This document shows, one piece after another, positions 21,412 through 43,037 of a stretch of 64,000 nt of DNA. The stretch is taken from the NCBI GenBank assembly GCA_965197905.1, contig CBDAOB010000003.1, positions 1,120,001 to 1,184,000 on the forward strand. The letters are read 5' to 3'. How positions within the stretch are numbered: the stretch's first letter is position 1; each line of letters begins with the position of its first letter. A program made the position numbers and the translations under genes. Under the pieces are notes generated by a model that was not told the DNA's origin, made no database searches, and worked only from the letters and a program-made list of their open reading frames with translations. The stretch is from Candidatus Latescibacterota bacterium. GTDB lineage: Bacteria > Latescibacterota > UBA2968 > UBA8231.

Positions 21412-21653
21412 AGCTCTACGACGAACAGATAGAGGTTGTATCGGGCAGCGATTCAAAACCGATACGGCTGAGCTGGCGCAAACGATGGTATGAGGTAGCT
21501 GCCATCCAGGATGAGTGGAAGGTGCGCGGAAGGCATTGGTACCAAGAAGAGAGTCGTCGGTATTTCCAGATCCAAACCGCTGACAACCGGATCATGACTG
21601 TATGTCAAAAGGAAACGAAGGATGACTGGCTCCTGGTGAGAGTGGTCGATTGA
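21408..21653 (+). CDS. Small ImuB-C/DUF6504-like protein
   Basis: PIRLSWRKRWYEVAAIQDEWKVRGRHWYQEESRRYFQI...WLLVRVVD; probable CTG start overlapping the imuB stop (CTGA); its stop overlaps the dnaE2 TTG. Confidence 0.7.
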   Translation: MKLYDEQIEVVSGSDSKPIRLSWRKRWYEVAAIQDEWKVRGRHWYQEESRRYFQIQTADNRIMTVCQKETKDDWLLVRVVD

Positions 21654-24600: not shown

Positions 24601-24844
24601 AACCGGGTATATCCAGGGGGTGGCGTTTCAACAGATCCAAGAGCAGTTCGGTGAGGTGCTGAGACAACCGGAGCTGATCGTCAGAGGTCGTCTGCAAGCC
24701 AGCGGGGGATGGAGGGGGCTGGTCATGCAGGAAGCCTGGCCCATCGAAGGAATGTTTGGCGGTTATTCCGGTTTTGCCTCGCAGAGTGGGGGAAGAGACC
24801 AGGTGGATGAAGCTCCGATCTCGGCACAACGACAGATGCGGTAG
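21650..24844 (+). CDS. dnaE2: Error-prone DNA polymerase III alpha subunit (DnaE2/ImuC)
   Basis: PHP HLHVRSWFSF, GRGSAANS, PDIDIDFD, KLDVLGL, YGFCRSHAAAF, RQRPATAKG OB fold; 1064 aa. Confidence 0.95.
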   Translation: MNFAHLHVRSWFSFLGGGSPPEKLVQRAAQLGFKALALTDRNGVYGAVRFQQACRDAGVHGVIGAEVTVEDTALVLLCMSRKGYANLNRLLTTAHLADRDSPSATLESVKKYHEELYCLTNGRDGRLWELVSRRKTREADLWLQQWHSIFRERLYVELCHGQHQGDSFVVQRIYRLANRHGIATVATNDVRFCRPDDYRVYDLFTCIRHNIRISDPHPDRPHNAEQYLKSEAELRRWIPFPEAFASAAEIAANCSVDLLPEEITPPAAHLPDGISGKKYLTSLCREALPVKYLERKNEAIAQLEKELQVIADLDLQEFFLVVREVVAEARRRGIRCAGRGSAANSIVAYLLDITAVDPIEHNLLFERFLHGGRKGTPDIDIDFDSDRRDEVIEWMEERFGLSQTAMTATLVTYRARSALRDVAKTLGWPLALINELTKLVPGFGIGVIPEFTEQITALLGESPLVHYLLHTVRQLEGCPRHLGLHSGGMVLSRKCLTYFSPTQVSANGVKVLQFDKYDIEALGLVKLDVLGLRMLATLSEAEELVRRHEDPQFDIDTLQLDDPRVYELMCSGRTIGLFQIESQGQMHMLAVNQPSCFDDVIVEVAIFRPGPLQSGMVHPYIRRRQGKEEVVYDHPILEEILEDTYGIILFQEQVLEIAHRFAHMSLEEADDFRALMSKFRDPGEMERMRGKFVAGAMGRGVPEEIAQKVFDQVSHFVGYGFCRSHAAAFARTVYHSAYLKRYNPACYMAAVMEHRPGFYDQGTLEEEAKRFGVDILPPDINCSQIRFDVEPVKKGALAIRKPLTSVRNVSEEDATRIVWGRLAGAYKSVEDLITRVALDRDVLEPLALAGALDKLATSSRDALWQIGVLMNRIDLIRDHAPAHSLFTLPVISSIDIPTLPDLTQVERMTWDHHAHEASRVHPMSLIRRTLKRLGVMPVSGCFRIVPLEQEGKAAEPMVTIAGRVILRQRPATAKGVMFITLEDETGYIQGVAFQQIQEQFGEVLRQPELIVRGRLQASGGWRGLVMQEAWPIEGMFGGYSGFASQSGGRDQVDEAPISAQRQMR

Positions 24845-25601: not shown

Positions 25602-26384
25602 TCAGGCGCGCCGAATTCGATCCAGGAGCCGTTCCAAGCGGTCGAACGCCACGCGCATCATCTCTTCGTCCCAGTCGCCGTCCACGTTGATGCTGACGAT
25701 TTTCTGCACCGCTTCCAAATACGCCTTCTGCGACTCCGTCAACACGCGAGCGAATGACGCGCGATCTTGCCCCCTGTCCGCGGAGCGATCGTTTCCTCCA
25801 GAGCGCTCGTTTCCTCCGGACCGCTCAGGTTGCGGCTGGCCCCGCCCCTCCCCGCGGCTCGGCTCCGAGCTTGCTCTCGCCGGTTCGGGCGGTGGCGAAT
25901 CGGCGGTTTCTGCATCGCCGCCCCCGTTCTGCGAGCCATAGTTGGACTCAGTGATCAAGTATTTGAAAAACATCTTCATCTTGTTGGCGGAATCTCGACC
26001 CACCCCAGTGCGTTCGGTGAAAAAGGAGACGATGTTGTTGTCGGAAACCTTGCCGTTTCCTTCGTTCCACTGTTCCAGCAATTCGGGATACAGATCCTGG
26101 AGAACCTCGATCAGCGCCTGTTTTCGCGACTCCTGATCCACCAGGCGCTGCAAAAGATCGGTGGGCTGCTGGTCGCGGTCGATCAGATTCATCGCTTCGA
26201 TGCCCCGTAAAAAACGGTGGATCATGGAGGGGGTGCGAATGATAGCCTGCATATAGTCGCGATCGATCTGCTCGGGAATATTGCGCTCCAGTCGCGACAG
26301 GAACTTGTCGAACTGGACCTTGGTCACGTAGGGATACCAGGTTCGGCTCGCTTTATCCTGGCCTTCGCCGCTGTCTTCAGTCAT
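25602..26384 (-). CDS. DUF5343-like hypothetical protein with a low-complexity linker
   Basis: YPYVT...FLSRL...PEQIDRDY...NLIDRDQQPT...LYPEL pattern; ERSGGN repeat linker. Confidence 0.6.
   Translation of the reverse strand: MTEDSGEGQDKASRTWYPYVTKVQFDKFLSRLERNIPEQIDRDYMQAIIRTPSMIHRFLRGIEAMNLIDRDQQPTDLLQRLVDQESRKQALIEVLQDLYPELLEQWNEGNGKVSDNNIVSFFTERTGVGRDSANKMKMFFKYLITESNYGSQNGGGDAETADSPPPEPARASSEPSRGEGRGQPQPERSGGNERSGGNDRSADRGQDRASFARVLTESQKAYLEAVQKIVSINVDGDWDEEMMRVAFDRLERLLDRIRRA
25783..25826. repeat. 18-bp tandem repeat (about 2.5 copies) encoding ERSGGN
   Basis: GAGCGATCGTTTCCTCCA / GAGCGCTCGTTTCCTCCG / GACCGCTC. Confidence 0.75.
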
Positions 26385-26455
26385 TTTCGTTTCTCCGCAT
26401 TTGTGCTCGACACGCCCTCCCTTGTCGCAGACGTTCTGCGCTCAATCTACCTTCG

Positions 26456-26809
26456 TTAGCCCGGGTGTCTCGCTGTTACAATCGTCTTGATGCCGCCGCG
26501 CACGTTGAATTCGCCGACGACAGTCATATTGTGCGGTGCGCAAGCGGCCACGAGATCGTCCAGGATCTTGTTGGTGACCGCTTCGTAGAATATCCCTTCC
26601 TGGCGGTACGACCAGAGATACAGCTTCAGTGATTTGAGCTCGATACAGCTGCGGTCAGGGATGTAACTGATGCGTATGATGCCGAAATCCGGCTGTCCGG
26701 TATTGGGGCAGACCGAAGTGAATTCCGGGCACTCTGCATCGATGGAATACTCCCGATTGGGATTGGGATTGGGGAAGGTCTCAAGGATACCGGCAGCGGC
26801 CGAACTCAT
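26456..26809 (-). CDS. queF: NADPH-dependent preQ0 reductase (type I)
   Basis: LETFPNP, PEFTSVCPNTGQPDFG, ELKSLKLYL, FNVRGGI. Confidence 0.95.
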   Translation of the reverse strand: MSSAAAGILETFPNPNPNREYSIDAECPEFTSVCPNTGQPDFGIIRISYIPDRSCIELKSLKLYLWSYRQEGIFYEAVTNKILDDLVAACAPHNMTVVGEFNVRGGIKTIVTARHPG

Positions 26810-26869
26810 GAATTTCTTGCCTCGATCCAAAGGTAGTCGTTTTGCGGCGGTCCACAAGCGGATCGCGAC

Positions 26870-27547
26870 TCACGCGTAGCGGATCGGGTCGGCTATTCCG
26901 GCCCGCTCGAAACCCGCACGGCGCAACCGACAGCTGTGGCAACGGCCACACGCCAGATCTTCTCTCTGGTAACACGACCAGGTGAGATGGAGTGGGGCTT
27001 CCAGCTCGACCCCCCGCCGGACGATCCCCTCTTTATCCAGGGCAAGCAGGGGTGTCATCACCTCAATTTTTGTTTGTGGCCTGGTACCGGTCTCAATGAG
27101 ATGGTTGAAGGACACGAAGAACTCCGGCCGGCAGTCGGGGTAGATGTTTTCGGCGGCGTGTGCACCTATGAAGATCTCGCGGCATTCGAGCGTTTCTGCC
27201 CAAGCTACCGCAATGCCCAGTAGGTTGGCGTTGCGAAACGGAACGTAGGTGTTGGGATTCTCTTCTGGTGCGGAACCTTGAGGGATTTCCATCGCGTGAT
27301 CAACGAGGCTAGAACCGCCGATCTGCCGCATGAACGAGACGTCGGTTGTAAGACGGTGCTGCACTTCGTAATGCTCCGCCAAATCGGAAAATGACTGCAG
27401 CTCCCGGCGCTCGGTGCGTTGGCCGTAATTCAGATGGAGGAAAGCCATCGTGTGGGAGCGGGCGGCGATGGCGGCGGCTACACAGCTGTCCAGGCCGCCG
27501 CTGATGAGAACGACCGCCGTTGGTGCCGATGAAGGATTGCCAATCAT
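26870..27547 (-). CDS. queC: 7-cyano-7-deazaguanine synthase
   Basis: SGGLDS, YGQR, TYVPFRN, YPDC, TWSCY...CGRCHSC. Confidence 0.95.
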   Translation of the reverse strand: MIGNPSSAPTAVVLISGGLDSCVAAAIAARSHTMAFLHLNYGQRTERRELQSFSDLAEHYEVQHRLTTDVSFMRQIGGSSLVDHAMEIPQGSAPEENPNTYVPFRNANLLGIAVAWAETLECREIFIGAHAAENIYPDCRPEFFVSFNHLIETGTRPQTKIEVMTPLLALDKEGIVRRGVELEAPLHLTWSCYQREDLACGRCHSCRLRRAGFERAGIADPIRYA

Positions 27548-29095: not shown

Positions 29096-29149
29096 TTGAC
29101 AGGCATGGGGAGGTATGGCTAATATGAAGGCGGCGTTCCCCCCCCCCCC
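29096..29149 (+). promoter_or_regulatory. Putative BMC-operon promoter followed by a C12 homopolymer
   Basis: TTGACA(29096)-N18-TAATAT(29120); C12 at 29138-29149, 18 nt before the first ATG. Confidence 0.55.
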
Positions 29150-29167: not shown

Positions 29168-29470
29168 ATGCTTCTCGCACAGGTCAAAGGCCACGTTGTA
29201 TCCAGTGCCAAGATCGACAGTTTGACGGGAAAAAAGCTGTTGCTCGTAGAGATCGTTACCGTGCGCGACGAGGGTTTGGAGCGCACCGAGCGCCACATGG
29301 TTTGCGTCGATGCGGTGGGAGCTGGAGAACGGGAACTGGTGCTGGTCGTCATGGGAAGCTCAGCTCGCGTCGCCCCCCATCTCGGCGACGTACCCACGGA
29401 TGCGGTCATCGTCGGCATCATCGATTCGCTCCAGGCGTTCGGTCGCGACATGGAGTTGGCGGACGCATGA
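29168..29470 (+). CDS. BMC vertex protein (BMC-P, EutN/CcmL family)
   Basis: MLLAQVKGHVVSSAK...DAVGAGERELVLVVMGSSAR...DAVIVGIID. Confidence 0.95.
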   Translation: MLLAQVKGHVVSSAKIDSLTGKKLLLVEIVTVRDEGLERTERHMVCVDAVGAGERELVLVVMGSSARVAPHLGDVPTDAVIVGIIDSLQAFGRDMELADA

Positions 29471-29721
29471 AGCGGTGCCGCGTGATTGGCAACGTGGTTT
29501 CCAGTTCTAAACATCCGGCGCTGGCTGGCAAGAAGCTTTTGTTGGTCAGACATCACGAAGAGACCGGCGATCCTGACCCCGGGATTGGCCTCGCCGTGGA
29601 TGGTGCTGGTGCCGGGATCGGCGATGATGTGATCGTCAGCGAATCCGGCGAAGCGGGCCGCGCCGTTACGCGTATCGAATATCCTCCCCTGCGCAGTGTA
29701 ATCGTCGGCATTGTGGACTGA
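29467..29721 (+). CDS. BMC vertex protein (BMC-P, EutN/CcmL family)
   Basis: MKRCRVIGNVVSSSKHPALAGKKLL...AVDGAGAGIGD...SVIVGIVD; ATGA overlap. Confidence 0.93.
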   Translation: MKRCRVIGNVVSSSKHPALAGKKLLLVRHHEETGDPDPGIGLAVDGAGAGIGDDVIVSESGEAGRAVTRIEYPPLRSVIVGIVD

Positions 29722-29724
29722 TCA

Positions 29725-30009
29725 ATGAAGCTTAATAGGGTCATTGGCACGGTGGTCCTGTCACGGTGCATCGAGCCGTTCAAGGGCAGGACCCTACACG
29801 TGACGCAGGATCTGAACGAGAGGCTCGAGCTGGTGGGCGATGCGGATGTCAGCATGGCCTGGGAACCGGTTCGCGAAGGGGAACTGGCCATTGTCGAGAT
29901 CGCGCGGGAAAGCGCCAATGCGTTCGATCCCCCCGTGCCCACCGACTCCGTTATTCTCGGCAGGGTCGACCGGGTTCACATCGATGAGAGATATAGCGGA
30001 GGTAAGTAG
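29725..30009 (+). CDS. BMC vertex protein (BMC-P), divergent
   Basis: MKLNRVIGTVVLSR...PVPTDSVILGRVD. Confidence 0.85.
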   Translation: MKLNRVIGTVVLSRCIEPFKGRTLHVTQDLNERLELVGDADVSMAWEPVREGELAIVEIARESANAFDPPVPTDSVILGRVDRVHIDERYSGGK

Positions 30010-30567
30010 ATGGCAGACGCAATCGGAATGGTAGAAACGGTCGGGTTCGTTGGGGCGGTGGAAGCGGGTGACGCGATGAGCAAAGCGGCGCAAGTTACGT
30101 TGACCGGATGGGACAAGATTGGGGCGGGTCTGACGTCGGTGTTCTGCGAAGGTGACGTGGCGGCGGTCAAATCGGCGGTCGATGCGGGGGCGCAGGCGGC
30201 GGCAAAGGTGGGAACGGTGCACAGCGCTCACGTGATTCCGCGGCCGCACTCCGAGTTGGAGTCGGTCTTGCCTTCAGCGTCCAAGGGAAACGGGGTGGTG
30301 GTTCAGGCGCTGGGGCTGGTGGAGACGCGGGGCTCGACCGGCGTGATCGAGGCGGCGGACGCCATGAGCAAAGCGGCAGATGTAGAGGTGGTGAAGATCG
30401 CCGAGATTGGCGGCGGTTATATCACGGTGTTGGTGACCGGGGATGTGGGATCGGTAAAATCGGCGGTGAGTGCTGGATCGGAAGCAGCGGAACGTGTCGG
30501 CGAGCTGGTCTCTCAACACGTTATCCCGCGCCCGTCGGACGAGGTCGCCTCGTTGTATCTAAGTTGA
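30010..30567 (+). CDS. BMC shell protein with two canonical BMC domains (tandem, BMC-T-like)
   Basis: Two copies of A(I/L)G(M/L)VET.G...DAMSKAA...GDV.AVKSAV...HVIPRP. Confidence 0.95.
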   Translation: MADAIGMVETVGFVGAVEAGDAMSKAAQVTLTGWDKIGAGLTSVFCEGDVAAVKSAVDAGAQAAAKVGTVHSAHVIPRPHSELESVLPSASKGNGVVVQALGLVETRGSTGVIEAADAMSKAADVEVVKIAEIGGGYITVLVTGDVGSVKSAVSAGSEAAERVGELVSQHVIPRPSDEVASLYLS

Positions 30568-30581
30568 AAGGGAAGGATTAG

Positions 30582-30845
30582 ATGAAGGCACTAGGTATGG
30601 TGGAGACCAAGGGTCTTGCGTGTATGGTAGAGGCGCTGGATGCGATGTTGAAGACCGCTGATGTCAAATACGTAGCTCAAAAACGAGTAGGAGCGGGTCT
30701 TGTGATGGTGATGGTGGAAGGCGATGTGGCGGCGGTGAAGGCAGCCGTGGATGCGGGCGCGCAAGCGGCGCAGCGAATCGGCGAACTGCGTAGCGTGCAC
30801 GTCATTCCACGGCCGATCGAAGGACTCCGGGCGCAGCTGAATTGA
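30582..30845 (+). CDS. BMC-H hexameric shell protein (PduA/EutM-like)
   Basis: ALGMVETKG...DAMLKTA...[10 protein letters not shown]...HVIPRP. Confidence 0.96.
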
Positions 30846-30874
30846 TGTGCACGCCCTGCTGAGAGTGCACTAGC

Positions 30875-32302
30875 GTGACCCAGAAGGTGAACGAAGACCA
30901 GGTCAGGGAGATCGTCGCCGAGGTCGTCAGCCGGGTGCTTGCGGCGCACAGCACTGAACCTGACTCGGGGTTATCGTCCCAGGTGGGCGGCGTTTTCGGG
31001 GACGCGGATGCGGCAGTGGCTGCTGCCCGCCGGGCTCAGGGGCAGTTGCTGTCGATGACGCTGGTAGACCGGAAGCGGATCATCGAAGCCATTCGCGATA
31101 CTCTGCACTCAGAGGCGGAGAGTTTCGCTCGGCGCACCCTCGAAGAGACCGGCATGGGCCGGCTCGAGGACAAGATCCGCAAACACCATGTGGCCGCAGA
31201 TACGACGCCCGGGGTCGAAGACCTGCATGCTGTTTCGTGGACCGGGGATCACGGCCTCACGGTGGTGGAGATGGCGCCGTATGGCGTAATCGCGGCGATA
31301 ACGCCATCCACCCATCCGGTGCCCACCATGGCAAGCAATGCCATCGGCATTGTCGCGGCGGGCAACGCGGCGGTTTTCAATGCTCACCCTGCCGCCAAAA
31401 AGATCTCCGCTGCCGCAGTCCAACAGCTAAACACCGCCATCGTAGAAGCGGGCGGCCCTGCCAACCTGATTACCATCATCGAACATCCAACCGTCGAGAG
31501 TGCTACTGAACTGTTCAACCACGCCGGCGTCGACGTCATACTGGTAACCGGCGGTCCCGCCGTCGCTCGAGCGGCCATGAGCTGTCCCAAGAAGGCGATC
31601 GTAGCGGGGCCCGGCAACCCACCTGTTGTCGTCGACGAAACGGCAGACCTGGAACGGGCGGCCCGGGACATCGTCGACGGCGCATCCTTCGACAACAATC
31701 TGCTCTGCATCGGCGAGAAGCAGGTGTTCGTCGTGGATTCGGTGGCTGACAGCCTGAAATCGCTCATGGTGCGGTACAGCGCTTACGAGCTCAACCCGGA
31801 GCAGATCGAACAACTCGTGCGGGAGGCGTTCGTCAGCGAGGGGAGCGGCGAACCCCGCGTGAATCGCGAGCTGGTGGGGCGCGACGCCGCGGTGCTGGGT
31901 GCCCGCATCGGTTTGCAGCTGGAAGACTCGCTGCGACTATTGATCGGCGAAACCGATGCCGGCCACATCTTCGTGCGGGAAGAGCAGATGATGCCGTTCG
32001 TGCCGATCGTCCGGGTGCCCAACGTAGATCAGGGGATTCGCGCCGCGGTCGAATCGGAGCATGGCTACCGACACACGGCGGTCATTCACTCGCGCAACAT
32101 CGAGAACATGCACAACATGGCCCGCGCCGCGGATACGACGGTGTTCGTCAAGAACGGCCCTTCTTACGCGGGATTGGGCATCGGTGGCGAAGGGTTCGGC
32201 ACCTACTCCATCGCCGGTCCCACCGGAGAAGGGCTGACGTCGGCGAGCACCTTTACGCGCCAACGACGCTGCAGCCTCGTAGACTATTTCCGCATCACCT
32301 GA
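30875..32302 (+). CDS. CoA-acylating aldehyde dehydrogenase (EutE/PduP-like) with an N-terminal encapsulation peptide
   Basis: EETGMG, TPGVEDL, VTGG, AGPGNPP, SFDNNLLCIGEK, EQMMP, TGEG; N-terminal EDQVREIVAEVVSRVL helix. Confidence 0.95.
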   Translation: MTQKVNEDQVREIVAEVVSRVLAAHSTEPDSGLSSQVGGVFGDADAAVAAARRAQGQLLSMTLVDRKRIIEAIRDTLHSEAESFARRTLEETGMGRLEDKIRKHHVAADTTPGVEDLHAVSWTGDHGLTVVEMAPYGVIAAITPSTHPVPTMASNAIGIVAAGNAAVFNAHPAAKKISAAAVQQLNTAIVEAGGPANLITIIEHPTVESATELFNHAGVDVILVTGGPAVARAAMSCPKKAIVAGPGNPPVVVDETADLERAARDIVDGASFDNNLLCIGEKQVFVVDSVADSLKSLMVRYSAYELNPEQIEQLVREAFVSEGSGEPRVNRELVGRDAAVLGARIGLQLEDSLRLLIGETDAGHIFVREEQMMPFVPIVRVPNVDQGIRAAVESEHGYRHTAVIHSRNIENMHNMARAADTTVFVKNGPSYAGLGIGGEGFGTYSIAGPTGEGLTSASTFTRQRRCSLVDYFRIT

Positions 32303-32310
32303 ACGGTCCC

Positions 32311-33021
32311 ATGTCCCAATCGAACCGGCAACCGCTCTCCGTGGATCGCGGCACCATTGAAACCATGGTTCGCGAGATCCTGGGGCGCTACTCGCCCGCC
32401 GAGGGTATGGACAAATCTGTAGCCGCCAGGATTCCGCGCCTGGTGGCGAACATCTCGGCTCGCCATCTCCACCTGAACCGCCAAACACTCGAAACCCTGT
32501 TCGGCTCAGGTGCTGAGCTGACGGTGCAGAAAGAGCTATACCAGGAAGGTGCGTTCGCCGCGGAACAGATGGTCACCGTATTCGGACCGCGGCAGCAGAT
32601 GATCGCCAACGTTCGCGTTCTGGGTCCGCTGCGCGATTACAACCAGGTGGAGCTTTCCTTCAGTGATGCGCGTTTCCTGGGCATCGATGCACCCGTTCGC
32701 CTGAGTGGCGATCACACCGACACCCCCGGGTGTTACCTGGTAGGTCCCGCCGGCGGTCTCGAACTGAAAGCGGGAGTGATACGGGCGGCCAGGCACGTCC
32801 ACATGAGTTCCGACGAAGGCGATTTCTACGGGGTAAAGGCGGGCGACCTGATGCGGCTCGTGGTAGACAGCGAACAAGGGGGAACACTGAGCGGACTGAT
32901 CTGCCGGGTCAGTGACCGCGAGAAGCTCGAGGTGCATCTGGACACCGACGAAGGCAACGCCGTCGATCTGGCGCGGGCCCGCAAGGTTCACCTGGAGAAA
33001 GAAACCGCTGATTCCACATGA
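32311..33021 (+). CDS. pduL: PduL-type phosphotransacylase with an N-terminal encapsulation peptide
   Basis: SARHLHL, RVLGPLR, RLSGD, ARHVHM, HLDTDEGNA; N-terminal DRGTIETMVREIL. Confidence 0.95.
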   Translation: MSQSNRQPLSVDRGTIETMVREILGRYSPAEGMDKSVAARIPRLVANISARHLHLNRQTLETLFGSGAELTVQKELYQEGAFAAEQMVTVFGPRQQMIANVRVLGPLRDYNQVELSFSDARFLGIDAPVRLSGDHTDTPGCYLVGPAGGLELKAGVIRAARHVHMSSDEGDFYGVKAGDLMRLVVDSEQGGTLSGLICRVSDREKLEVHLDTDEGNAVDLARARKVHLEKETADST

Positions 33022-33500
33022 GCTCCGTACTCCACATACAGGAGATGGTTGTCACCGGGGACGATCTTGCCCGGGCGCACCAGGGCCAGGAAGTGCTGTG
33101 TGTCGTTGCCGCGGCGGTGCTTACGCCGACGGCCTGGGATTACATTCGCGACCAGCGTTTGCGGCTGACTCGAGGGGAAAGCGCGTCCGTGTCCGAGTCT
33201 GTGGCACCGTCGGCGTCGACCAACCTGGTCAACGAGGCGCAGATGGTGCCCCATGCGCAGTGCGACCAACCGGGAAGTTCCTGCGGATGCACAACCGAGG
33301 AGTTTGGCTCCGGTTTTGTTCAACCCGAAAGTTGTGGGGTGTGTGCCATACATCAGCTCAAGGTCGCCGGCCAGGCGAACCCCGGATGCGAGGGCTGTAA
33401 TCTGAACGGGCGCTGCGACGGCGAATCAGGGTCCGCCGCCGCGACGGAGTCACTCGTGGCACAGATCACCGAGCAGATTGTGGAGCAGCTACGCCGATGA
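33018..33500 (+). CDS. BMC-associated Cys-rich hypothetical protein with a C-terminal encapsulation-peptide-like helix
   Basis: VTGDDL...AVLTPTAWDYIR module; 8 Cys in a ~53-aa stretch; C-terminal ESLVAQITEQIVEQL; 4-nt overlaps at both ends. Confidence 0.75.
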   Translation: MSSVLHIQEMVVTGDDLARAHQGQEVLCVVAAAVLTPTAWDYIRDQRLRLTRGESASVSESVAPSASTNLVNEAQMVPHAQCDQPGSSCGCTTEEFGSGFVQPESCGVCAIHQLKVAGQANPGCEGCNLNGRCDGESGSAAATESLVAQITEQIVEQLRR

Positions 33501-34060
33501 GCGGCGCGCTAGGTATCATCGAGGCAGAGGGGGTCGCCGGCATCATCGCCGCCTCGGACGTTGTCGGCAAAACCGCCGACGTCGAGCTGCTTGGCTGGGA
33601 GTCGATCGGCGGAATCACCTCCATCTTTTTCCGCGGGACCGTCGCGGAGGTGGCCGCCTCACTTGAAAGCGGCCGCGAGGCCGCCGCGGCGCTCGCGGAC
33701 AAGGTTGTGGCGGCCCCGTTGTATCAGCCCGAAGCGGTCTGCAGCGATTTCATTGGGCATCCGATGCCGGACGAGATCGAGGTTCCGGATGGCGCACTGG
33801 GCTTGCTCGAGTCTCGCGGCTACGGTGCTCACGTGCTGGCTAACGACCGCATGGTGAAGGCGGCTCCGGTCCGGGTCTACAATCTTCTGGCAGTGCACGA
33901 TCGCGTCGTTTGCACCCTGATCAACGGCGAGGAGGGTGCGGTTCGAGAGGCGATTGCCAGCGGCCGCGAACTGTTCGCTCGCGACGTGCGCTTCCGCTGT
34001 TCCACCGTTATCTCGCGCCCGTTACCGCACGTGCTGCGGGCGTTCGCGCCGGGCTGTTAG
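33497..34060 (+). CDS. Divergent two-domain BMC shell protein
   Basis: ALGIIEAEG...DVVGKTA and ALGLLESRG...DRMVKAA...VISRP. Confidence 0.88.
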   Translation: MSGALGIIEAEGVAGIIAASDVVGKTADVELLGWESIGGITSIFFRGTVAEVAASLESGREAAAALADKVVAAPLYQPEAVCSDFIGHPMPDEIEVPDGALGLLESRGYGAHVLANDRMVKAAPVRVYNLLAVHDRVVCTLINGEEGAVREAIASGRELFARDVRFRCSTVISRPLPHVLRAFAPGC

Positions 34061-34235
34061 TGCCCTGTATCGATAATATGCCTGTATTAATTCGCCGACT
34101 CATCCCGACCTGCTTCGTTACGCTCACTCGGCGTATTTCACCAATACGCCTCGATCGCGCGCCTTGCAGGACGGGCGACTCGGCGCCTTCATTGCACAGG
34201 CCTACTTCCGATACAGGGCACTGAGGAGGCTGCAG

Positions 34236-35393
34236 GTGGCGCAACCAAGCGCATTCGGGGTGTTGGAGACCCGAGGAGTAACGGCTCAAGTGGCTGCGAC
34301 CGACGCCATGGTCAAAACTGCTGATGTTCGGGTGTGCGGACGCCAGGCGATCGGCTCGGGATGGGTAACGGTGGTAGTGGAGGGTGAGGTCGGGGCCGTG
34401 CAAGCCGCGGTGGCAAGCGGCGAGCGCGAAGCCGGCAAGTACGGCGAGCTGATCGGCGCGGACGTCCTGACCGCGCCGGACATGGCGGCCGCCGACATCA
34501 TGCCACATGCCAGTGGGCTGAGCCCTGCTACCCTCAAACCCCAGCAAGCTCTCGGCGTCCTCGAGACTCGGGGTTTTGCCCAGCTGGTCGTTGGGGGTGA
34601 CGCCGCGACCAAGGCGGCGGCGGTAAGTGTCTGCGGCTGGGCTTCTGCCGGCGGTGCACTGTGCCATCTGGTGGTTCAGGGCGAAGTGGCCAGCGTGTAC
34701 ACTGCCCTGCGCGAAGGTCGCATCGCAGCCGAGACCGCCGGCGAGGTGTATGCGGCCCTGGTTATTCCACAGCCAGCGGTGGACGTGGCCGGCGTGTTGC
34801 CCGTGCCCGCAGGCGCTCAGCCAGCAGAGGTCGGTGCCCTCGGAATACTGGAGACCACCGGATATACCGGTTCGGTGGCGGCTGCGGACGCGATGGCCAA
34901 AACGGCTGAGATCGGAGTGGCGCGTTTCAATATTGGAAGTGGTGGACGCACCGCTGTTATGACCACGGGAAAACTGGACGATGTCCAGGCCGGCATCGAG
35001 CCCGGTGTTGCCGCGGCCAAACTGGCTGGTGGATTCGAGAACGCCCGTGTCGTCACCCGGCCCGACCCGGATATCGTGGCCTGTTTCGCGCAGGCAACAA
35101 CCAGTGCCGCACCGAAGGGGCTGGCCCTCGGATTAATCGAAACCCGCAGCACCGTGGCTCTGGTGAAGGCGATGGACGAGATGCTCAAAGGGGCCGACGT
35201 GGAGTACGAAGGCCGGGTGAAGGTGGGGTTCTATCTCACCGCCGGTGCGATTCGCGGTGACGTGGGCGCCGTCAGAGTGGCATTGGATCTGGGTGCGAAA
35301 GAGGCTCGTCGCCATGGGGAACTGGTCGCAACGCACTTGATACCGCAACCCGACCGGGGTATGGAGCCACCGCTACCACATCGAGGAACGTAA
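34236..35393 (+). CDS. BMC shell protein with four tandem BMC domains
   Basis: Four A(F/L)G(V/I/L)(L/I)ET units, each with DxxxK (DAMVK, DAATK, DAMAK, DEMLK); GTG start at 34236 after GAGGAGG. Confidence 0.9.
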   Translation: MAQPSAFGVLETRGVTAQVAATDAMVKTADVRVCGRQAIGSGWVTVVVEGEVGAVQAAVASGEREAGKYGELIGADVLTAPDMAAADIMPHASGLSPATLKPQQALGVLETRGFAQLVVGGDAATKAAAVSVCGWASAGGALCHLVVQGEVASVYTALREGRIAAETAGEVYAALVIPQPAVDVAGVLPVPAGAQPAEVGALGILETTGYTGSVAAADAMAKTAEIGVARFNIGSGGRTAVMTTGKLDDVQAGIEPGVAAAKLAGGFENARVVTRPDPDIVACFAQATTSAAPKGLALGLIETRSTVALVKAMDEMLKGADVEYEGRVKVGFYLTAGAIRGDVGAVRVALDLGAKEARRHGELVATHLIPQPDRGMEPPLPHRGT

Positions 35394-35413
35394 TCACCAG
35401 GAAGAGAACAAAC

Positions 35414-36574
35414 ATGGTACGCATCGCAGCTAGAGTGATCACGGGTCCGATGCTGGAGGAACAGCTCGCTGGCTCCGGCTCTGTGCAGATCGACAGGGGA
35501 GCGGTACTGACGCCCTCGGCGTTGGACTACCTAAAGGCTCACGAGGTCTCGGTGGTGCGCGACGGAGATGTGCCGCCTGCTGCCGCGAAGGGGGAGAAGC
35601 AAAACAGCCCCGTCGCGGGAGCGAAGCGGTTTCAAGGAATTTTTGTGCCCAACGTCGTCATCTTCGACGCTGACGGAAACATCAACTTCGGCGAAATGGA
35701 GCGTTACATCGCCTGGTTGATCGACGCTGGCATTCACGGACTCTACCCCAACGGAAGCACCGGCGAATTCGTGCGGCTTTCCGCCGAGGAGCGGCGGGAG
35801 GTGGTGCGCATCATCGCAAATGTAAACCAGGGGCGAGTTCCGATTCTGGCCGGTGCCAGCGAAGCGAATGTGCGCGACGTGCTGGATACGGCGGAGTATT
35901 ACGCGCGTTTGGATGTGGATGCCATCTCCCTGGTGCCTCCGTACTACTACAAGATCTCCGAACGCAGCCTGTTCGAGTATTTCGCCGAGATCGCCCGCAA
36001 CTCGCCCCTCGATATCTTGCTCTACAACATTCCCCAGTTCACCCAGGAGCTCACCCTGGATATCATGGAGGAGCTGCTCCCGTTCGAGCGCATCTTCGGC
36101 ACCAAGGACTCGAGCCGAGACCTGCCACGGATCGTAAATACAATCCACCGGTTGCGCCCCCAGCGTCCCGACTACGTGGTGCTCAACGGCTGTGAGGAGA
36201 TCCTGCTGCCTGCTATCATCATGGGCGCAGACGGCGGCACCATCGCCACCGCTGGCATCATACCCGAGGTAATCGCCGAGTTGTACCGGTGCTCTCTCGA
36301 GGGAGAAATCGAGCGCGCCCGCATGCTGCAGTATCGCATCATCGACCTCATAAACCTGATGCTGTTGGGTGCCAGTTTCCCCCAGGGGTTCAAGACAGGT
36401 GTGGCGGTGCGCGGGTTTGACGTAGGTCCACCCCGCCAGGTCATGAGCACCCAGGAGCGCGAAGTCCTGTCGCAACTGGAGGCGCAGATTACCTGTCTGC
36501 TGGACGACATGGGATACGAGGTGGACGGAGCAAGCAGCTGCCCCGTGACCAATACACCCCCCATTGTCAACTAG
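35414..36574 (+). CDS. DHDPS/NAL-family aldolase/lyase with an N-terminal BMC-associated module; candidate BMC signature enzyme
   Basis: NGSTGE, PPYYY, LLYNIP, Schiff-base Lys in TKDSS; ~70-aa N-terminal extension (AVLTPSALDYLK). Confidence 0.88.
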   Translation: MVRIAARVITGPMLEEQLAGSGSVQIDRGAVLTPSALDYLKAHEVSVVRDGDVPPAAAKGEKQNSPVAGAKRFQGIFVPNVVIFDADGNINFGEMERYIAWLIDAGIHGLYPNGSTGEFVRLSAEERREVVRIIANVNQGRVPILAGASEANVRDVLDTAEYYARLDVDAISLVPPYYYKISERSLFEYFAEIARNSPLDILLYNIPQFTQELTLDIMEELLPFERIFGTKDSSRDLPRIVNTIHRLRPQRPDYVVLNGCEEILLPAIIMGADGGTIATAGIIPEVIAELYRCSLEGEIERARMLQYRIIDLINLMLLGASFPQGFKTGVAVRGFDVGPPRQVMSTQEREVLSQLEAQITCLLDDMGYEVDGASSCPVTNTPPIVN

Positions 36575-36580
36575 AGGACC

Positions 36581-37675
36581 GTGACGGGGCTCCGCAGCGG
36601 ACCGAAGGTCGCGGTCATTGGCGCCGGAGTCATCGGCCGTTTCATAGCCTACCAGCTTACCGCACGGGGAATCCCCGTCGACCTTCTCGACCCCGGTCCC
36701 GATCCCTCATCCACTACCGCCGCCTCTCTTGGGGTGTTGACCCACTTCAACGGGGGCGACGATCCATATTCGCTGCTCTACCGGGACAGCTACCACAGTT
36801 ATTGCGAGCTGGCGGTCCAACTGGAGCACCAGACGGGCATCGATATCGGCTGGCGCCCGCTGGGGGGAATCGATCTGATATTCGACGAGGACGATGAGGC
36901 CGCGGCTGCCGCAACAGTCGCGTTCAATCGCTCGCGACACTGCGTCGTCGAACAGCTGGACCGTGACCGCGTACACGAACTGGAACCGGCCATATCCGAG
37001 AAGGTCCAGGGAGGATTGTATTTCCCCGACGACCAGCGCGTCGACCCGGCGAAGCTGGCCGCCGCGCTTATCAAGGCCATCGAACAGCAGGGTGGGGTCG
37101 CCCACTTCGGGGTCCGGGTGCTCGGTTTCGGCGACGTGACACGGCAGGGAGTTTCCCTGCAGACGACTTCGAGCACATTCGAGGCTGATGTGGTAGTGCT
37201 GGCAGCAGGTTGCTGGACCGGCGAGCTCGGCCGCATGCTCGGCGCCCACATCCCCGTTCGACCGATCAGGGGGCAGCATTGCCGTTTTTCAGGGGCCGCC
37301 GTCGAGCACGTGGTGCGCTACGACGGTCGGCACCTCCTCGCCTCCGATGAGTTCACGGTCGTGGGGGCAACCGTGGAGGACGTCGGTTTCGACGTGGAGG
37401 TATCGGCGTTGGCGCGTCAGGAGCTGTCCACTTTCGTGGGGGCAACCGTCAAACCCCATATGAGTTTTCACCAGCAGCGCGCGGGGCTGCGGCCCAAACC
37501 CAAGGGGGGTCGTCCCCTGATCGGACCACTGGAGGAATACCCGCAGGTATTCGTCGCAACGGGTCACTATAAGAACGGAATTCAGCTGGGGCCGGGGACG
37601 GGGGAGGCGGTGGCACGATGGATCGTTGATGGGGACCCTGGCCGGCAGATGGGGCGGTTCAAGCCGGAAAGGTAG
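36581..37675 (+). CDS. FAD-dependent oxidoreductase, glycine oxidase/D-amino-acid oxidase family
   Basis: VIGAGVIG, LAAGCW, PIRGQ, GLRP, TGHYKNGI. Confidence 0.88.
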   Translation: MTGLRSGPKVAVIGAGVIGRFIAYQLTARGIPVDLLDPGPDPSSTTAASLGVLTHFNGGDDPYSLLYRDSYHSYCELAVQLEHQTGIDIGWRPLGGIDLIFDEDDEAAAAATVAFNRSRHCVVEQLDRDRVHELEPAISEKVQGGLYFPDDQRVDPAKLAAALIKAIEQQGGVAHFGVRVLGFGDVTRQGVSLQTTSSTFEADVVVLAAGCWTGELGRMLGAHIPVRPIRGQHCRFSGAAVEHVVRYDGRHLLASDEFTVVGATVEDVGFDVEVSALARQELSTFVGATVKPHMSFHQQRAGLRPKPKGGRPLIGPLEEYPQVFVATGHYKNGIQLGPGTGEAVARWIVDGDPGRQMGRFKPER

Positions 37676-38992: not shown

Positions 38993-39664
38993 CTACGCCT
39001 GCTCCACAAATATGTGGCGGGCGACCTCCAACCCCAGTGAGCAATCCCGACCCTCTCCGACCTTGAGCTGCAGCGGCCCCTTGAACGGCGCCTTGCTGCG
39101 GACCTCCACATCGGTTCCAAGTTGCAGTCCCATCTCCTCCATGTAGCGCAGCATCTCAGGATTGCGGTCGCTGACCTCGCGAATCACTGCCGCCGAACCG
39201 ACATCGAGATCGGACAAGGGACTGTAGGCGTTGGTCCTTACGTCTCCCTGCTTGCTGGGAATCGCCTCGCCATGCGCCCCCACTGTCGGAAATCCGAGAG
39301 CGGCGTCGATGCGGTCCTCGAACTCCTCGGAAATGGCGTGTTCCAGCCTGTCCGCCTCGGCATCTACCTCGTCCCAGCCGTAGCCCAGAGCCTGGGTCAG
39401 ATAGAGCTCTAACAAGCGGTGGTGGCGAATCGTTTCAAGTGCAACTTTGGCGCCGGAGCTGGTGAGCTCGACACCCTTGTACGGGGCATGTACCAGCAGT
39501 TTCATCTCCGCCAGCTTCTTGATCATGTTGGTGGCTGACGCCGGCGCCACGTCCATCTTTTCGGCAATCAACGACGTAGTTACCGGTCCGCCCTCGTGAC
39601 GCTGACCCAATTTGTAGATCGTGCGCAGGTAATGTTCCATGGACTGGCTGATCACTTCTTCCAT
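38993..39664 (-). CDS. DtxR/MntR-family metal-dependent regulator with a C-terminal FeoA/SH3 domain
   Basis: EHYLRTIY, RHHRLLELYL, EADRLEH, HGEAIP. Confidence 0.93.
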   Translation of the reverse strand: MEEVISQSMEHYLRTIYKLGQRHEGGPVTTSLIAEKMDVAPASATNMIKKLAEMKLLVHAPYKGVELTSSGAKVALETIRHHRLLELYLTQALGYGWDEVDAEADRLEHAISEEFEDRIDAALGFPTVGAHGEAIPSKQGDVRTNAYSPLSDLDVGSAAVIREVSDRNPEMLRYMEEMGLQLGTDVEVRSKAPFKGPLQLKVGEGRDCSLGLEVARHIFVEQA

Positions 39665-39668
39665 TGCG

Positions 39669-41096
39669 CTATCCCCATATCAACCGTGCTAGCTGTGCCA
39701 CGAAGAAACAGAGCACGAGGCCCATTGCGACCGGTAGCAGCGACGCGAATGTGGTCCATTTGGCGCTCTTGGTTTCCTTGTAAATCGTGTAGATCGTCGT
39801 CGAACAGGGATTGTGCACCAGGCTGAACAGCATAAGGTTGACCGCCGTCAGCAGCGTCCACCCCCCGGCGCGAAATATATCGGCGGTAGCTACTTCCGAA
39901 TCCAGTTCGAACATGACCCCGGCGCCATCCCCCAACCCCGCCAGGCGCGCGCTGAGAACCGTAAGCATGAGGATGGTGGGAATGATGATCTCGTTGGCTG
40001 GAATGGCGACGATGTAGGCGAGCAGGATGACGCCGTTCAACCCGATCAACAGGCCAAATCCATTGGTATTGTTGATGAAGTGTTCCGCCAGGCTGAGATC
40101 GCCCACGTGGATGTTGGAGAGCAACCAGATGACCGCTCCGGCCGGAATGGCGAATATTACAGCGCGCCACAGAACGATAAGGGTGCGGTCGATCACCGAG
40201 GTGTAGATCGTCTGCAATACTCTGGGTGGCCGGTACGGCGGTAGTTCGAGGCTGAAAGCAGAAGCCTCCCCCTTCAGAACGGAATGGGAAAGGCCCCAGG
40301 AAACCACCAGAGAAAGCACGATGCCCAATACCGCCACAAAAACAACCGCCGCCGCCGATACAAGCCCGGCCAGATGGGCGGGAGCCAGTGCCCCGATAAA
40401 AATAGTGGCTACAAGGATCTGGGTCGGCCAGCGACCGTTGCACAGGGCGAAATTGTTGGTGATGATGGCGATCAACCGCTCTCGCGGACTGTCGATGACC
40501 CGGGTCGATACTATGGCTGCGGCATTGCAGCCGAATCCCATAGTCATGGTCAACGCCTGTTTGCCGTGGGCCCCGGCTCGCTTGAACAGATTGTCCAGAT
40601 TGAAGGCGACCCGCGGCAAATAACCGAAATCCTCCAAAAGGGTGAACAGTGGGAAAAAGATCGCCATGGGTGGCAGCATGACCGCGATGACCCAGGCCAT
40701 GGCCAGGTAGATCCCGTCGATCAGCAGACCGTCCAGCCACCAGGGCAGGCTGATGGATTGCGCGCCGGCTTTCAGAAGCGGGTGAGTGGTGTCAATCAGC
40801 AATGTGGCCAGCATCCCCGACGGCACGTTGGCTCCCTCGATGGTTACCCAGAACACCACGGCGAGCATGAGCAGCATCAGCGGGAATCCGAGCCAGCTGC
40901 TGGTAACCAGGCGGTCGATGGTGCGATCCATGTCGAAGCGCGGGACCTCGTCCCCTCTGGTTACGGCGCGGTCGGCGATGTCGGCGGCATCGGCGTAGAT
41001 CGATTCCATCAGCGAATCGTGAAAGTTACGACCCGCTTCCCAACGCAGGGTGTTGGCGGCGGTGAGTAGCTGTTCCGATTGATCTCTGACGTTCAT
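39669..41096 (-). CDS. feoB: FeoB membrane domain (split FeoB)
   Basis: [39 protein letters not shown]. Confidence 0.9.
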
Positions 41097-41926
41097 CAGT
41101 GCGCCTCCGAGGCTGTGGCAAGTGTATTTTCCCGGTCCAGGCCGCCATCCTGATTCAGAGACCCCAGGTCGCCGGTGCGCACCGCCTCGACGATACGTCG
41201 GTCCCCTTCCAGAAGCCGTAGCGCCACCCAGCGGGCGTTGGGCAGATGGGGAAACGCCGTTTCTACCTGGTCCTCCAGGCGGTCGAGGGCGCTCTTGAGC
41301 GAGGCAGGTTCACTCTTTGTGCGGCGAGGTTTGCAGACGACGCGGCCGGCAGCAACGTCGCTTATCGTCTGCAGCAACGATGGAATCCCTTCCCCACTGC
41401 GGGCGGCGGTAGGCACCACGGGAACCCCCAGGTCTCGCGCCAGGCGCCGTTCGTCTACCGACACATTATGGCGTTTCGCCTCGTCAATGAGGTTGAGGCA
41501 AACCACGGCGCGATCGGTAATCTGCAGCACCTGCAGCACCAGGTTCAAATTGCGCTCCAAGCGGGTGGCATCGACCACGACAACAGTTACATCCGGTTGG
41601 CCGAAGAGAATGAAATCCCGCGCCACCTCCTCGTCGGTGCTGGTGGACAGCAGCGAATAGGTGCCCGGCAGATCCACGAGTTTGAACCGGGCGTCCTGAT
41701 ACGAGAACCCCCCCTCGGCCCGGACTACCGTCTTCCCCGGCCAGTTGCCGGTGTGCTGGCGCAACCCGGTGAGGCTGTTGAACACCGTGCTCTTGCCGGT
41801 GTTAGGATTACCCGCCAGCGCCACGACGTAATCCCAGTTCTTCATGTTGACCCCCAGCTTGATCAAGTTGCCGGCATTGTGGGCCGGGCAAGCTTCACAA
41901 GCGCTGGAAGAAACCTGGTTGCTCAT
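41096..41926 (-). CDS. feoB: FeoB GTPase domain (split FeoB)
   Basis: [34 protein letters not shown] overlap with the membrane-domain gene. Confidence 0.92.
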
Positions 41927-42954
41927 CTTGCGCTCTCCATGTTGAGGGCTATCTGCACGTGTTCGGCCTGCTCTTTGCGCAGGGCGATAGCAGCCCCGCG
42001 AATTCGATATGCCGTGGGATCCCCCGTTGGGCTCCTCATCTCCACCTCGATCACCGTTCCCGGAACGATGCCGAGATCCATAAGACGGCGGCGCTCCAGG
42101 CCGCGGCAGGCCGGCGAGATACGCACCACCTGACCCCGCTCCCTCACCCCGAGGCCGGCCAGGGTTTCGAAAGGCCCTTCCATCTCCTCTTCTTCCGGCA
42201 AGGCGGCGACGAAGATGTTGGCGGCGTCCACCGGGGTGAGCTGACGTTGTTGCCCGTCGGCGAGCAGCTCCACCGTTTCCGGGGTCACGCGGCCGATCTC
42301 CACCCGCATGCCCAAATGCAAGCCGGCTTCGACGATACGGCTGAATACGTCTCCGGGCTCGTCTTCGATGTGGACGATGGTGGCCACATGTCCCTCAGCA
42401 AGGGACGCGACCGGCTGTCCCCCCTTTGGCGCAATCTCTCCCGTCGCGGTGGGAATCGGATCGCCATGGGGATCGTAGACCGGGAATCCCATCAGCTCAT
42501 CCAGCTCGTCCGCCTCGGTGGCGGAGATGCTATGCTCGCGATCTTCGGCCTCCCGGTGCCACGAATCGGCGGTGTGGCCGGTCTCTTCCGCCAGATAGTG
42601 CTCCCAGAGCCGATGGACGCGAATGATGCGCAGGGCGCCGGCCTTGCCTTCGGATGTGAGACGGAGTTCACCGCTATCGGACTGCAGCAGTTTCAGGCTT
42701 TCCAGCCGCCCCAGAAGCTCGGCGGCTCGATTCTGGCCGATACCTAGAGCTCCGGACAGGCTTTCCACGGTGGCGGTGCGCTTGAGGTATTCGTATTTGA
42801 AAAAGTGTTTGAGAGCATCCTCGATCATCACCCGCTCACCCAACTGGTGGAGCTGTTGCCAGCGCCAAAACAGGCCCCGTGAAGGCCAAAATAGCAACGC
42901 GAGAACGCCGGCGATCAATCCGGCCACGATTAACGCCGTCTGAGGTTCCGTCAT
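41923..42954 (-). CDS. Membrane-anchored DtxR-family protein fused to two FeoA domains
   Basis: N-terminal TM helix; [37 protein letters not shown]3 domain; C-terminal Feo[12 protein letters not shown]...SPTGDP...IALR. Confidence 0.88.
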
Positions 42955-43037
42955 AACGCTTCCTTTGATAATCACAGATCGGCCCGGCTATGCCACTGTG
43001 GTCCTACCGGGCTCTATTATGCTCCGAAAAATTATTA

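Follow-up and report, generated by a model that had tools for sequence, protein, structure and literature searches.

The bacterial microcompartment (BMC) type MUF2 was catalogued by Sutter et al. in 2021 (PMC8217296, Supplementary Data 2); the accessible parts of that source leave its function unsolved and place it among the types without an obvious signature enzyme. The MUF2 entry lists a triplet of BMC-P proteins, double and quadruple shell fusions, a six-Cys protein and a nearby class I aldolase of pfam00701, and gives as the usual aldolase a pfam00596 enzyme that carries a C-terminal peptide (hereafter the tagged class II aldolase) and is encoded in a satellite with a BMC-H. We analysed a 64,000-nucleotide stretch of a Candidatus Latescibacterota genome (contig CBDAOB010000003.1, positions 1,120,001 to 1,184,000; the window), which holds at 29168-37675 a cluster of shell and enzyme genes that includes a DHDPS/NAL-family class I aldolase. 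This cluster is almost certainly a MUF2-type main locus. We lean slightly towards reading it as a MUF2 main locus without the tagged class II aldolase, in which the DHDPS-family aldolase would be shell cargo that splits a 2-keto-3-deoxy sugar acid. The genome of the window is labelled G000, its relatives G001 and onwards, and individual loci L001 and onwards.

As in the accessible MUF2 description, the window has an acylating aldehyde dehydrogenase (AldDH) and a phosphotransacylase (PTAC) within the main locus, with N-terminal peptides described for the MUF2 AldDH and some of its PTACs; a BMC-P triplet (three PF03319 genes here); double and quadruple linear BMC-H fusions (PF00936 in two, two and four copies here); a six-Cys protein with a C-terminal peptide, whose N-terminal domain is common with the nearby pfam00701 aldolase; and a host of the same kind. 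G000 also encodes a lone satellite BMC-H with a C-terminal extension (G000:C4, L061:5708-6184 (-)), another MUF2 trait. EutM-like shell genes in the cluster comprise one single-domain gene and one tandem fusion of two EutM-like domains. The MUF2 AldDH is described as closest to that of the PVM (Planctomycetes/Verrucomicrobia; fucose/rhamnose) type; the AldDH here is 47% identical to one planctomycete AldDH (L144). Unlike the MUF2 described, G000 has no tagged pfam00596 aldolase satellite, and we therefore file the locus as a MUF2 variant rather than as a plain member. The initial annotation had proposed a new metabolosome type, to be given up if the locus matched a defined one; the feature-by-feature match to the MUF2 description rules that proposal out. 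The cluster consists of 12 co-oriented open reading frames (ORFs) on the + strand, with spacings of -4 to 29 bp and a single exception, a gap of 175 bp. A Pfam scan returned PF03319 in three genes, PF00936 once in one gene, twice in each of two others and four times in another, and also PF00171, PF06130, PF00701 and PF01266. The features are as follows.

29096-29125, +: sigma-70-like promoter match just upstream of the first shell gene; 10/12, consensus match only, best of 7 matches (shuffle mean 2.6)
29168-29470, +: BMC-P vertex protein 1, 100 aa; PF03319, E 7e-25
29467-29721, +: BMC-P vertex protein 2, 84 aa; PF03319, E 4e-21
29725-30009, +: BMC-P vertex protein 3, divergent, completing the triplet, 94 aa; PF03319, E 3e-8
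30010-30567, +: tandem two-domain BMC shell protein, 185 aa; two PF00936
30582-30845, +: BMC-H hexamer protein, 87 aa; PF00936
30875-32302, +: CoA-acylating AldDH of the PduP/EutE type, 475 aa; PF00171, PRK15398 645 against a cut-off of 403
32311-33021, +: PduL phosphotransacylase, 236 aa; PF06130, PRK15070 219 against a cut-off of 209
33018-33500, +: Cys-rich MUF2 protein, 160 aa; no Pfam family, placed by alignment
33497-34060, +: divergent two-domain BMC shell protein, 187 aa; two PF00936
34059-34222, no strand: repeat of about 165 bp resembling a miniature inverted-repeat transposable element (MITE), with 27-nt inverted ends; not part of the system
34236-35393, +: four-domain linear BMC-H fusion, 385 aa; four PF00936
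35414-36574, +: DHDPS/NAL-family class I aldolase, 386 aa; PF00701, 196 bits, under every NCBIfam cut-off
36581-37675, +: glycine-oxidase-like FAD oxidase, 364 aa; PF01266, ThiO model 197 against a cut-off of 251

The shell, AldDH, PduL, Cys-rich, DHDPS and oxidase genes named in the initial annotation are thus all confirmed. So are the encapsulation-peptide-like helices that it had noted on AldDH and PduL, which lie N-terminally at residues 10-21 and 16-27, and we found an additional one at the C terminus of the Cys-rich protein, which follows an N-terminal domain of about 50 aa common with the aldolase and a Cys-rich middle. AldDH has Cys278 within FDNNLLC, and its nearest solved structures are the aldehyde dehydrogenases 5JFL and 4C3S; PduL has two RHxH motifs. 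A peptide hidden Markov model built from 60 pieces matched only AldDH (ranked first) and the Cys-rich protein across G000; its sensitivity is limited, since it did not recover PduL. In agreement with the initial annotation, the cluster has neither a dehydratase nor a lyase or glycyl-radical enzyme, and it also lacks a regulator, a kinase, an alcohol dehydrogenase and a class II aldolase.

Other described systems resemble parts of this locus. PVM shares with it the BMC-P triplet, AldDH and PTAC, but the class II aldolase signature enzyme, acetate kinase, lactate/malate dehydrogenase and DeoR regulator found in the accessible PVM description have no counterpart in this cluster (PMC4207490). One PVM locus protein bears the same domain of about 50 aa as the window's proteins, and the ortholog of the class I aldolase that some PVM carriers encode has a tail resembling an encapsulation peptide. 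The closest likeness in solved structures is Escherichia coli YagE, which has aligned catalytic motifs but is distant (E 2e-38), and we know of no report of YagE, or of the L-2-keto-3-deoxyfuconate (L-KDF) aldolase FucH, as microcompartment cargo. DeoC is a Schiff-base enzyme. In SPU microcompartments, as described in the accessible parts of the catalogue, an aldolase of the DeoC type (pfam01791), which is likewise not class II, feeds an acylating AldDH within a triplet-BMC-P shell (PMC8217296); unlike the window, SPU uses another aldolase family and a sugar-phosphate substrate, and no pfam01791 or pfam02502 gene lies in the cluster.

The class I aldolase and its probable ties to the shell

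The aldolase consists of the N-terminal shared domain (about 35414-35569), a linker and a catalytic barrel with Tyr204 and Lys231. Consistent with the earlier observation that its Schiff-base motifs are intact, these two residues, together with G114, G117 and E118, were invariant in all 95 aligned homologs, and S115 and T116 of the GSTGE motif were kept in 94. The Schiff-base Lys, the catalytic Tyr and the GxxGE carboxylate site of 2-keto-3-deoxy sugar acid aldolases (YagE/KDGA/FucH type) are thus all present. Its best solved-structure match is YagE (titled probable 2-keto-3-deoxy-galactonate aldolase), barely ahead of DapA entries, with the GCEE motif of the aldolase aligning with GYDD of YagE. 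The KdgD models were the lowest of the family matches (104 and 89 bits). Two C-terminal cysteines, Cys361 and Cys376, are conserved in 94/95 homologs of both sub-clades, a possible disulfide or metal site, and Cys260 is conserved in 83/95.

Some database names call homologs 4-hydroxy-tetrahydrodipicolinate synthase, and DapA structures stand close behind YagE; even so, we give practically no credence to the enzyme being the housekeeping DapA. It scored 151 against a cut-off of 206 bits for TIGR00674 (dapA), and a separate gene in G000, at C5:2648428, scored 229. That gene keeps the Arg of the YxxPxR motif, which we take to be a mark of DapA, and the class I aldolase has PQF instead. In a tree that also held six G000 paralogues and four distant matches, an outgroup with long branches, 19 window-type and planctomycete-type sequences formed one clade (100/100, long stem) apart from these ten, and several genomes have lost the enzyme. 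By score and tree, the aldolase is not DapA, an outcome that the initial annotation had named as refuting its reading, and it is a member of a shell-linked clade. Apart from this, matches in G000 number 44 for the MR/MLE enolase family and 13 for the dapA model, which amounts to a large expansion of paralogues for acid-sugar-type catabolism.

We found 57 aldolase-bearing loci: 52 at 63-95% identity to the window's enzyme, from metagenome-assembled genomes titled mostly Ca. Latescibacterota, Handelsmanbacteria or Gemmatimonadota, one planctomycete locus at 52% and four distant ones. A plasmid search gave eight distant matches (27-34%) and was uninformative. The four-domain shell gene stands directly 5' of the aldolase in 50 of the 50 loci that have upstream DNA, and the divergent two-domain shell gene co-travels with this pair; in 14 loci the two shell genes and the aldolase form a separate cassette away from the main locus. 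Six planctomycete-type loci (L051, L113, L115, L117, L119, L122) have a two-domain shell gene next after the aldolase, which stands alone in 18 others. The separate cassettes and these six loci resemble the 'EUT module' satellites of the catalogue, which, as far as they are described there, are likewise mobile cassettes of shell protein(s) and an enzyme that extend a main organelle but with another enzyme and other shell proteins (Sutter et al. 2021, PMC8217296).

Presence of the aldolase also follows presence of the shell. Across 301 Planctomycetota genomes, which include kin and so are not independent, an ortholog was found in 19 of 104 BMC-P-positive and in 0 of 197 BMC-P-negative genomes, and all 19 carriers have three BMC-P. 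Likewise, the class I aldolase is absent from all five shell-less members of the window's family (G012, G015, G033, G034, G035).

The two sub-clades differ in their termini. Using our own pattern for the encapsulation-peptide consensus, applied to the last 30 residues, we found a peptide-like C terminus in 115 of the best 120 planctomycete-type aldolases listed and in 0 of the best 120 Latescibacterota-type (window-type) ones; 245 of 2400 control windows (10%) matched the pattern. The N-terminal domain of about 50 residues (N-domain) occurred in 0 of the best 120 planctomycete-type aldolases, whereas 119 of the best 120 window-type enzymes had it, and no aldolase among those listed carried both features. 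An N-domain profile run over G000 (E<0.001) matched only the aldolase and the Cys-rich protein. The domain also starts an RpiB-like protein inside a planctomycete microcompartment locus, and among the best 150 of 1136 profile matches were 9 aldolases, 25 Cys-rich proteins, 60 RpiB-like proteins and 56 without assignment, so that, judged by its sequence matches, it appears otherwise mainly on microcompartment-locus proteins. Many of the RpiB-like proteins with the N-domain (L144:5919-6530 (-), L186) have an N-terminal encapsulation-peptide-like helix; one lies in a planctomycete microcompartment locus and one, in G016, far from shell genes. A profile search of the PDB with the N-domain gave no significant match, and its Atlas matches were all below 0.9, with clusters named for ethanolamine utilisation or EutQ serving as leads only. 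The Cys-rich protein was considered as an obligatory adaptor and rejected: an adaptor is not required, because searches of G026, G027, G030 and G092 placed the shared domain on the aldolase and on no other protein.

Taken together, these patterns of sequence and synteny make it likely that the class I aldolase associates with the shell or the lumen. The shell association suggested in the initial annotation holds up in this qualified form, although the window's enzyme itself lacks a canonical encapsulation peptide.

Aldehyde source, substrate and rival explanations

G000 has three PF00596 genes, none tagged and none near a shell gene, and its best match to the relatives' tagged class II aldolase reaches 32%. 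In eight relatives (G003, G005, G007, G008, G009, G010, G011, G014) the tagged enzyme is encoded near a BMC-H; for six of the eight, complete reading of the flanks showed a conserved gene context that includes a TPR gene and/or ychF. The syntenic site in G000 (C5:1606286-1616834) is continuous, without N, and holds a K+-channel-like gene instead, as do the corresponding sites in G002, G004 and G036. A separate observation is that ychF, which relatives have at that site, went undetected in G000 apart from weak matches at other positions. G000 as a whole lacks the tagged class II aldolase, and the site itself is intact, so the class I aldolase is the only locus-linked aldehyde source. Across 76 family genomes, a class II aldolase was found in 63, a count that includes copies in shell-less genomes whose match ends before the tail, and the class I aldolase in 59. 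Both were found in 53, class I only in 6, class II only in 10 and neither in 7, some absences being draft gaps (in G006, part of a class I gene lies where a contig ends).

In the reading we favour, a non-phosphorylated 2-keto-3-deoxy sugar acid would enter through the shell proteins that co-travel with the aldolase, the two- and four-domain proteins supplying its entry pore or docking site. The aldolase would cleave the sugar acid to pyruvate and an aldehyde, which the predicted AldDH would convert to an acyl-CoA and PduL to an acyl-phosphate; an acetate-kinase-like gene elsewhere in G000 (C4:1957577) could then use the acyl-phosphate to make ATP. The core steps (AldDH, PduL, kinase) are the established metabolosome scheme in the accessible parts of the catalogue (PMC8217296). 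We propose the aldol step because of the family's chemistry: YagE is the nearest solved structure, and L-KDF aldolase (FucH), to which we liken the enzyme by description, is reported in the accessible text to yield pyruvate and L-lactaldehyde through a lysine Schiff base (PMC11199699). It is somewhat more likely than not that the window's enzyme makes the aldehyde by retro-aldol cleavage. That the substrate is a 2-keto-3-deoxy sugar acid is nearly an even call, and the narrower idea of an L-fuconate or L-rhamnonate derivative giving lactaldehyde is doubtful. The scheme leaves NAD+ recycling unexplained, because the cluster has no alcohol dehydrogenase.

Several observations weigh against this reading. 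The window's aldolase has no canonical C-terminal encapsulation peptide; its characterised relatives are all distant, and every NCBIfam score is below cut-off, so that the substrate is not fixed. Co-occurrence tests for fucose isomerase, L-rhamnonate dehydratase and a fuconate-dehydratase motif showed no upstream fucose or rhamnose acid pathway co-occurring with the aldolase. None of the 19 planctomycete carriers had an L-rhamnonate-dehydratase-like gene; 11 of the 35 genomes tested did, in no case linked to the aldolase. The copy in G000 falls short of the cut-off (322 versus 393), and such genes also occur in non-carriers. The L-fuconate dehydratase motif was absent from the G000 enolase-family genes scanned (30 of 44), and 18 planctomycete loci show no informative aldolase neighbours. 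A search of G000 also found no fucose isomerase. The lactaldehyde route of the initial annotation is plausible but draws no support from co-occurrence. The organelle can also be found without this enzyme: shell genes persist in G001, G004 and G036 although neither aldolase was found there (AldDH was seen in G001 and G004), and of the two aldolases G005, G011 and G032 have only class II, which makes the class I aldolase dispensable in relatives. The MUF2-type shell loci in genomes without either aldolase are L079 (G004), L086 (G001) and G036:C1:3350264-3355544.

A last point on this side is a class II aldolase-SDR (short-chain dehydrogenase) fusion at G000:C5:208875-210854 (L064:8876-10855), present in exactly 5 of the 76 genomes (G000, G001, G002, G004, G036). 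These belong to genera g1 and g3, the two in which the tagged class II aldolase is lacking; the fusion could supply the aldehyde instead. On the rival account built on it, the class I aldolase is optional and the organelle mainly detoxifies or oxidises a cytosolic aldehyde, most likely from the fusion, which replaced the tagged enzyme. We consider this rather unlikely. All five fusion genomes lack the tagged aldolase, and three of them also lack the class I aldolase yet keep shell genes, but the pattern probably reflects a single event in two related genera and so amounts to one data point. The fusion scored below the RhaD-SDR cut-off (411 versus 568) and gave no encapsulation-peptide match, its dehydrogenase domain could itself use up the aldehyde with no need for a shell, and the account leaves the peptide on the planctomycete orthologs unexplained. 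Less probable still is that the aldolase is cargo but not the aldehyde source, condensing excess aldehyde with pyruvate or, like other members of the DHDPS/NAL family, serving as a dehydratase or deaminase of the Schiff-base kind that processes a side product. Aldol reactions are reversible, the family contains dehydratases (the KdgD matches), no upstream dehydratase co-occurs, and the class I and class II aldolases coexist in 53 of the 76 genomes. Against this, the KdgD models rank last, GCEE aligns with GYDD of YagE, and the aldolase cassette has its own shell proteins, as expected for substrate import.

Two further alternatives are very improbable. The oxidase and the aldolase might form one pathway, from a hydroxy-amino acid through a 4-hydroxy-2-oxo acid to pyruvate and an aldehyde inside the shell. 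The oxidase gene lies 6 bp downstream of the aldolase here and comes after it in 37 of 52 loci, and a true ThiG is missing from G000; but the oxidase gene is kept in all five shell-less family members without a BMC domain, is missing from 15 of the 52 aldolase loci and shows no targeting extension in the peptide pattern scan. Slightly more remote is that the locus is decaying in the genus, with the aldolase as a relic: none of the twelve frames is broken, their catalytic motifs are in place and they are 87-99% identical to L001, and the repeat sits between genes with the ribosome-binding site remaining, despite the loss of the class II satellite and of a fourth BMC-P, the loss of the aldolase in G001 and the insertion of the repeat in the operon.

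The oxidase, the repeat and flanking genes

The distribution of the oxidase, kept in shell-less relatives, led us to reject it as cargo, and it is probably a resident neighbour; its listing among the organelle parts in the initial annotation is unsupported. It is also missing from other families of the class (0 of 56 genomes). Nor is it explained as a thiamine ThiO, because G000 has no true ThiG, only weak cross-matches; its TIGR02352 score was 197 versus 251 bits. In three shell-less members inspected, the order IspH, FAH-family gene, oxidase is uninterrupted. Two genes were considered as pathway clues, the FAH-family gene, which lies on the opposite strand (20 loci), and a second DHDPS-like gene (32 loci, not found in G000); we set both aside, as they persist in shell-less relatives. 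This second gene is divergent (313 aa, PF00701 40 bits) and lies 3' of the oxidase (L046:12281-13219 and 31 other loci); the two may form a separate catabolic pair.

For the four-domain shell gene, GTG 34236 (ribosome-binding site 34223-34229) is a more likely start than TTG 34164. The MITE-like repeat is missing from L001, a relative 95% identical, and G000 has eight further near-full-length copies at 87-94% identity, plus weaker ones. Upstream of the cluster, window positions 21650-24844 and 25602-27547 hold what we take from the translations to be a DnaE2-like polymerase ORF, a 260-aa conserved protein and queF/queC-like genes. Downstream, at 38993-42975, lie a presumed MntR/DtxR-like regulator and a FeoB-like gene apparently split into two ORFs, also named from their translations; both are conserved in relatives.

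Implications for MUF2-type organelles

In a literature search that had most subscription papers, including the 2014 PVM paper, outside its scope, the catalogue and its preprint were the sole sources to mention MUF2, and none named a pfam00701 enzyme as microcompartment cargo. The accessible parts of PMC8217296 do not propose the class I aldolase as MUF2 cargo or signature enzyme, and the accessible main text of PMC4207490 and PMC4594438 does not mention pfam00701. What is added to MUF2 here is the aldolase clade, the either-or pattern of peptide and N-domain, the absence of the class II enzyme at an intact site, and the oxidase as a neighbour.

A wider proposal, which we offer tentatively and hold to be less probable than the cargo reading, is that the DHDPS/NAL clade supplies a second, so far unrecognised signature enzyme of PVM- and MUF2-type organelles, carrying a classical peptide in Planctomycetota and a folded module of about 50 residues in Latescibacterota, and the sole signature enzyme in G000. 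The exchange of peptide for N-domain points, at the level of sequence, to a possible second way of targeting enzymes to shells. Because G000 combines a shell and the core enzymes with the class I aldolase alone, it narrows the search for the MUF2 signature enzyme. Cargo status for the aldolase would mean that microcompartments handle non-phosphorylative sugar-acid routes as well, and that in some planctomycetes a cargo enzyme whose gene lies at a distance from the organelle genes has been overlooked. Should the wider proposal be true, G000 would have a metabolosome run on a non-phosphorylated sugar acid, with a new shell-targeting domain that would be usable for engineering.

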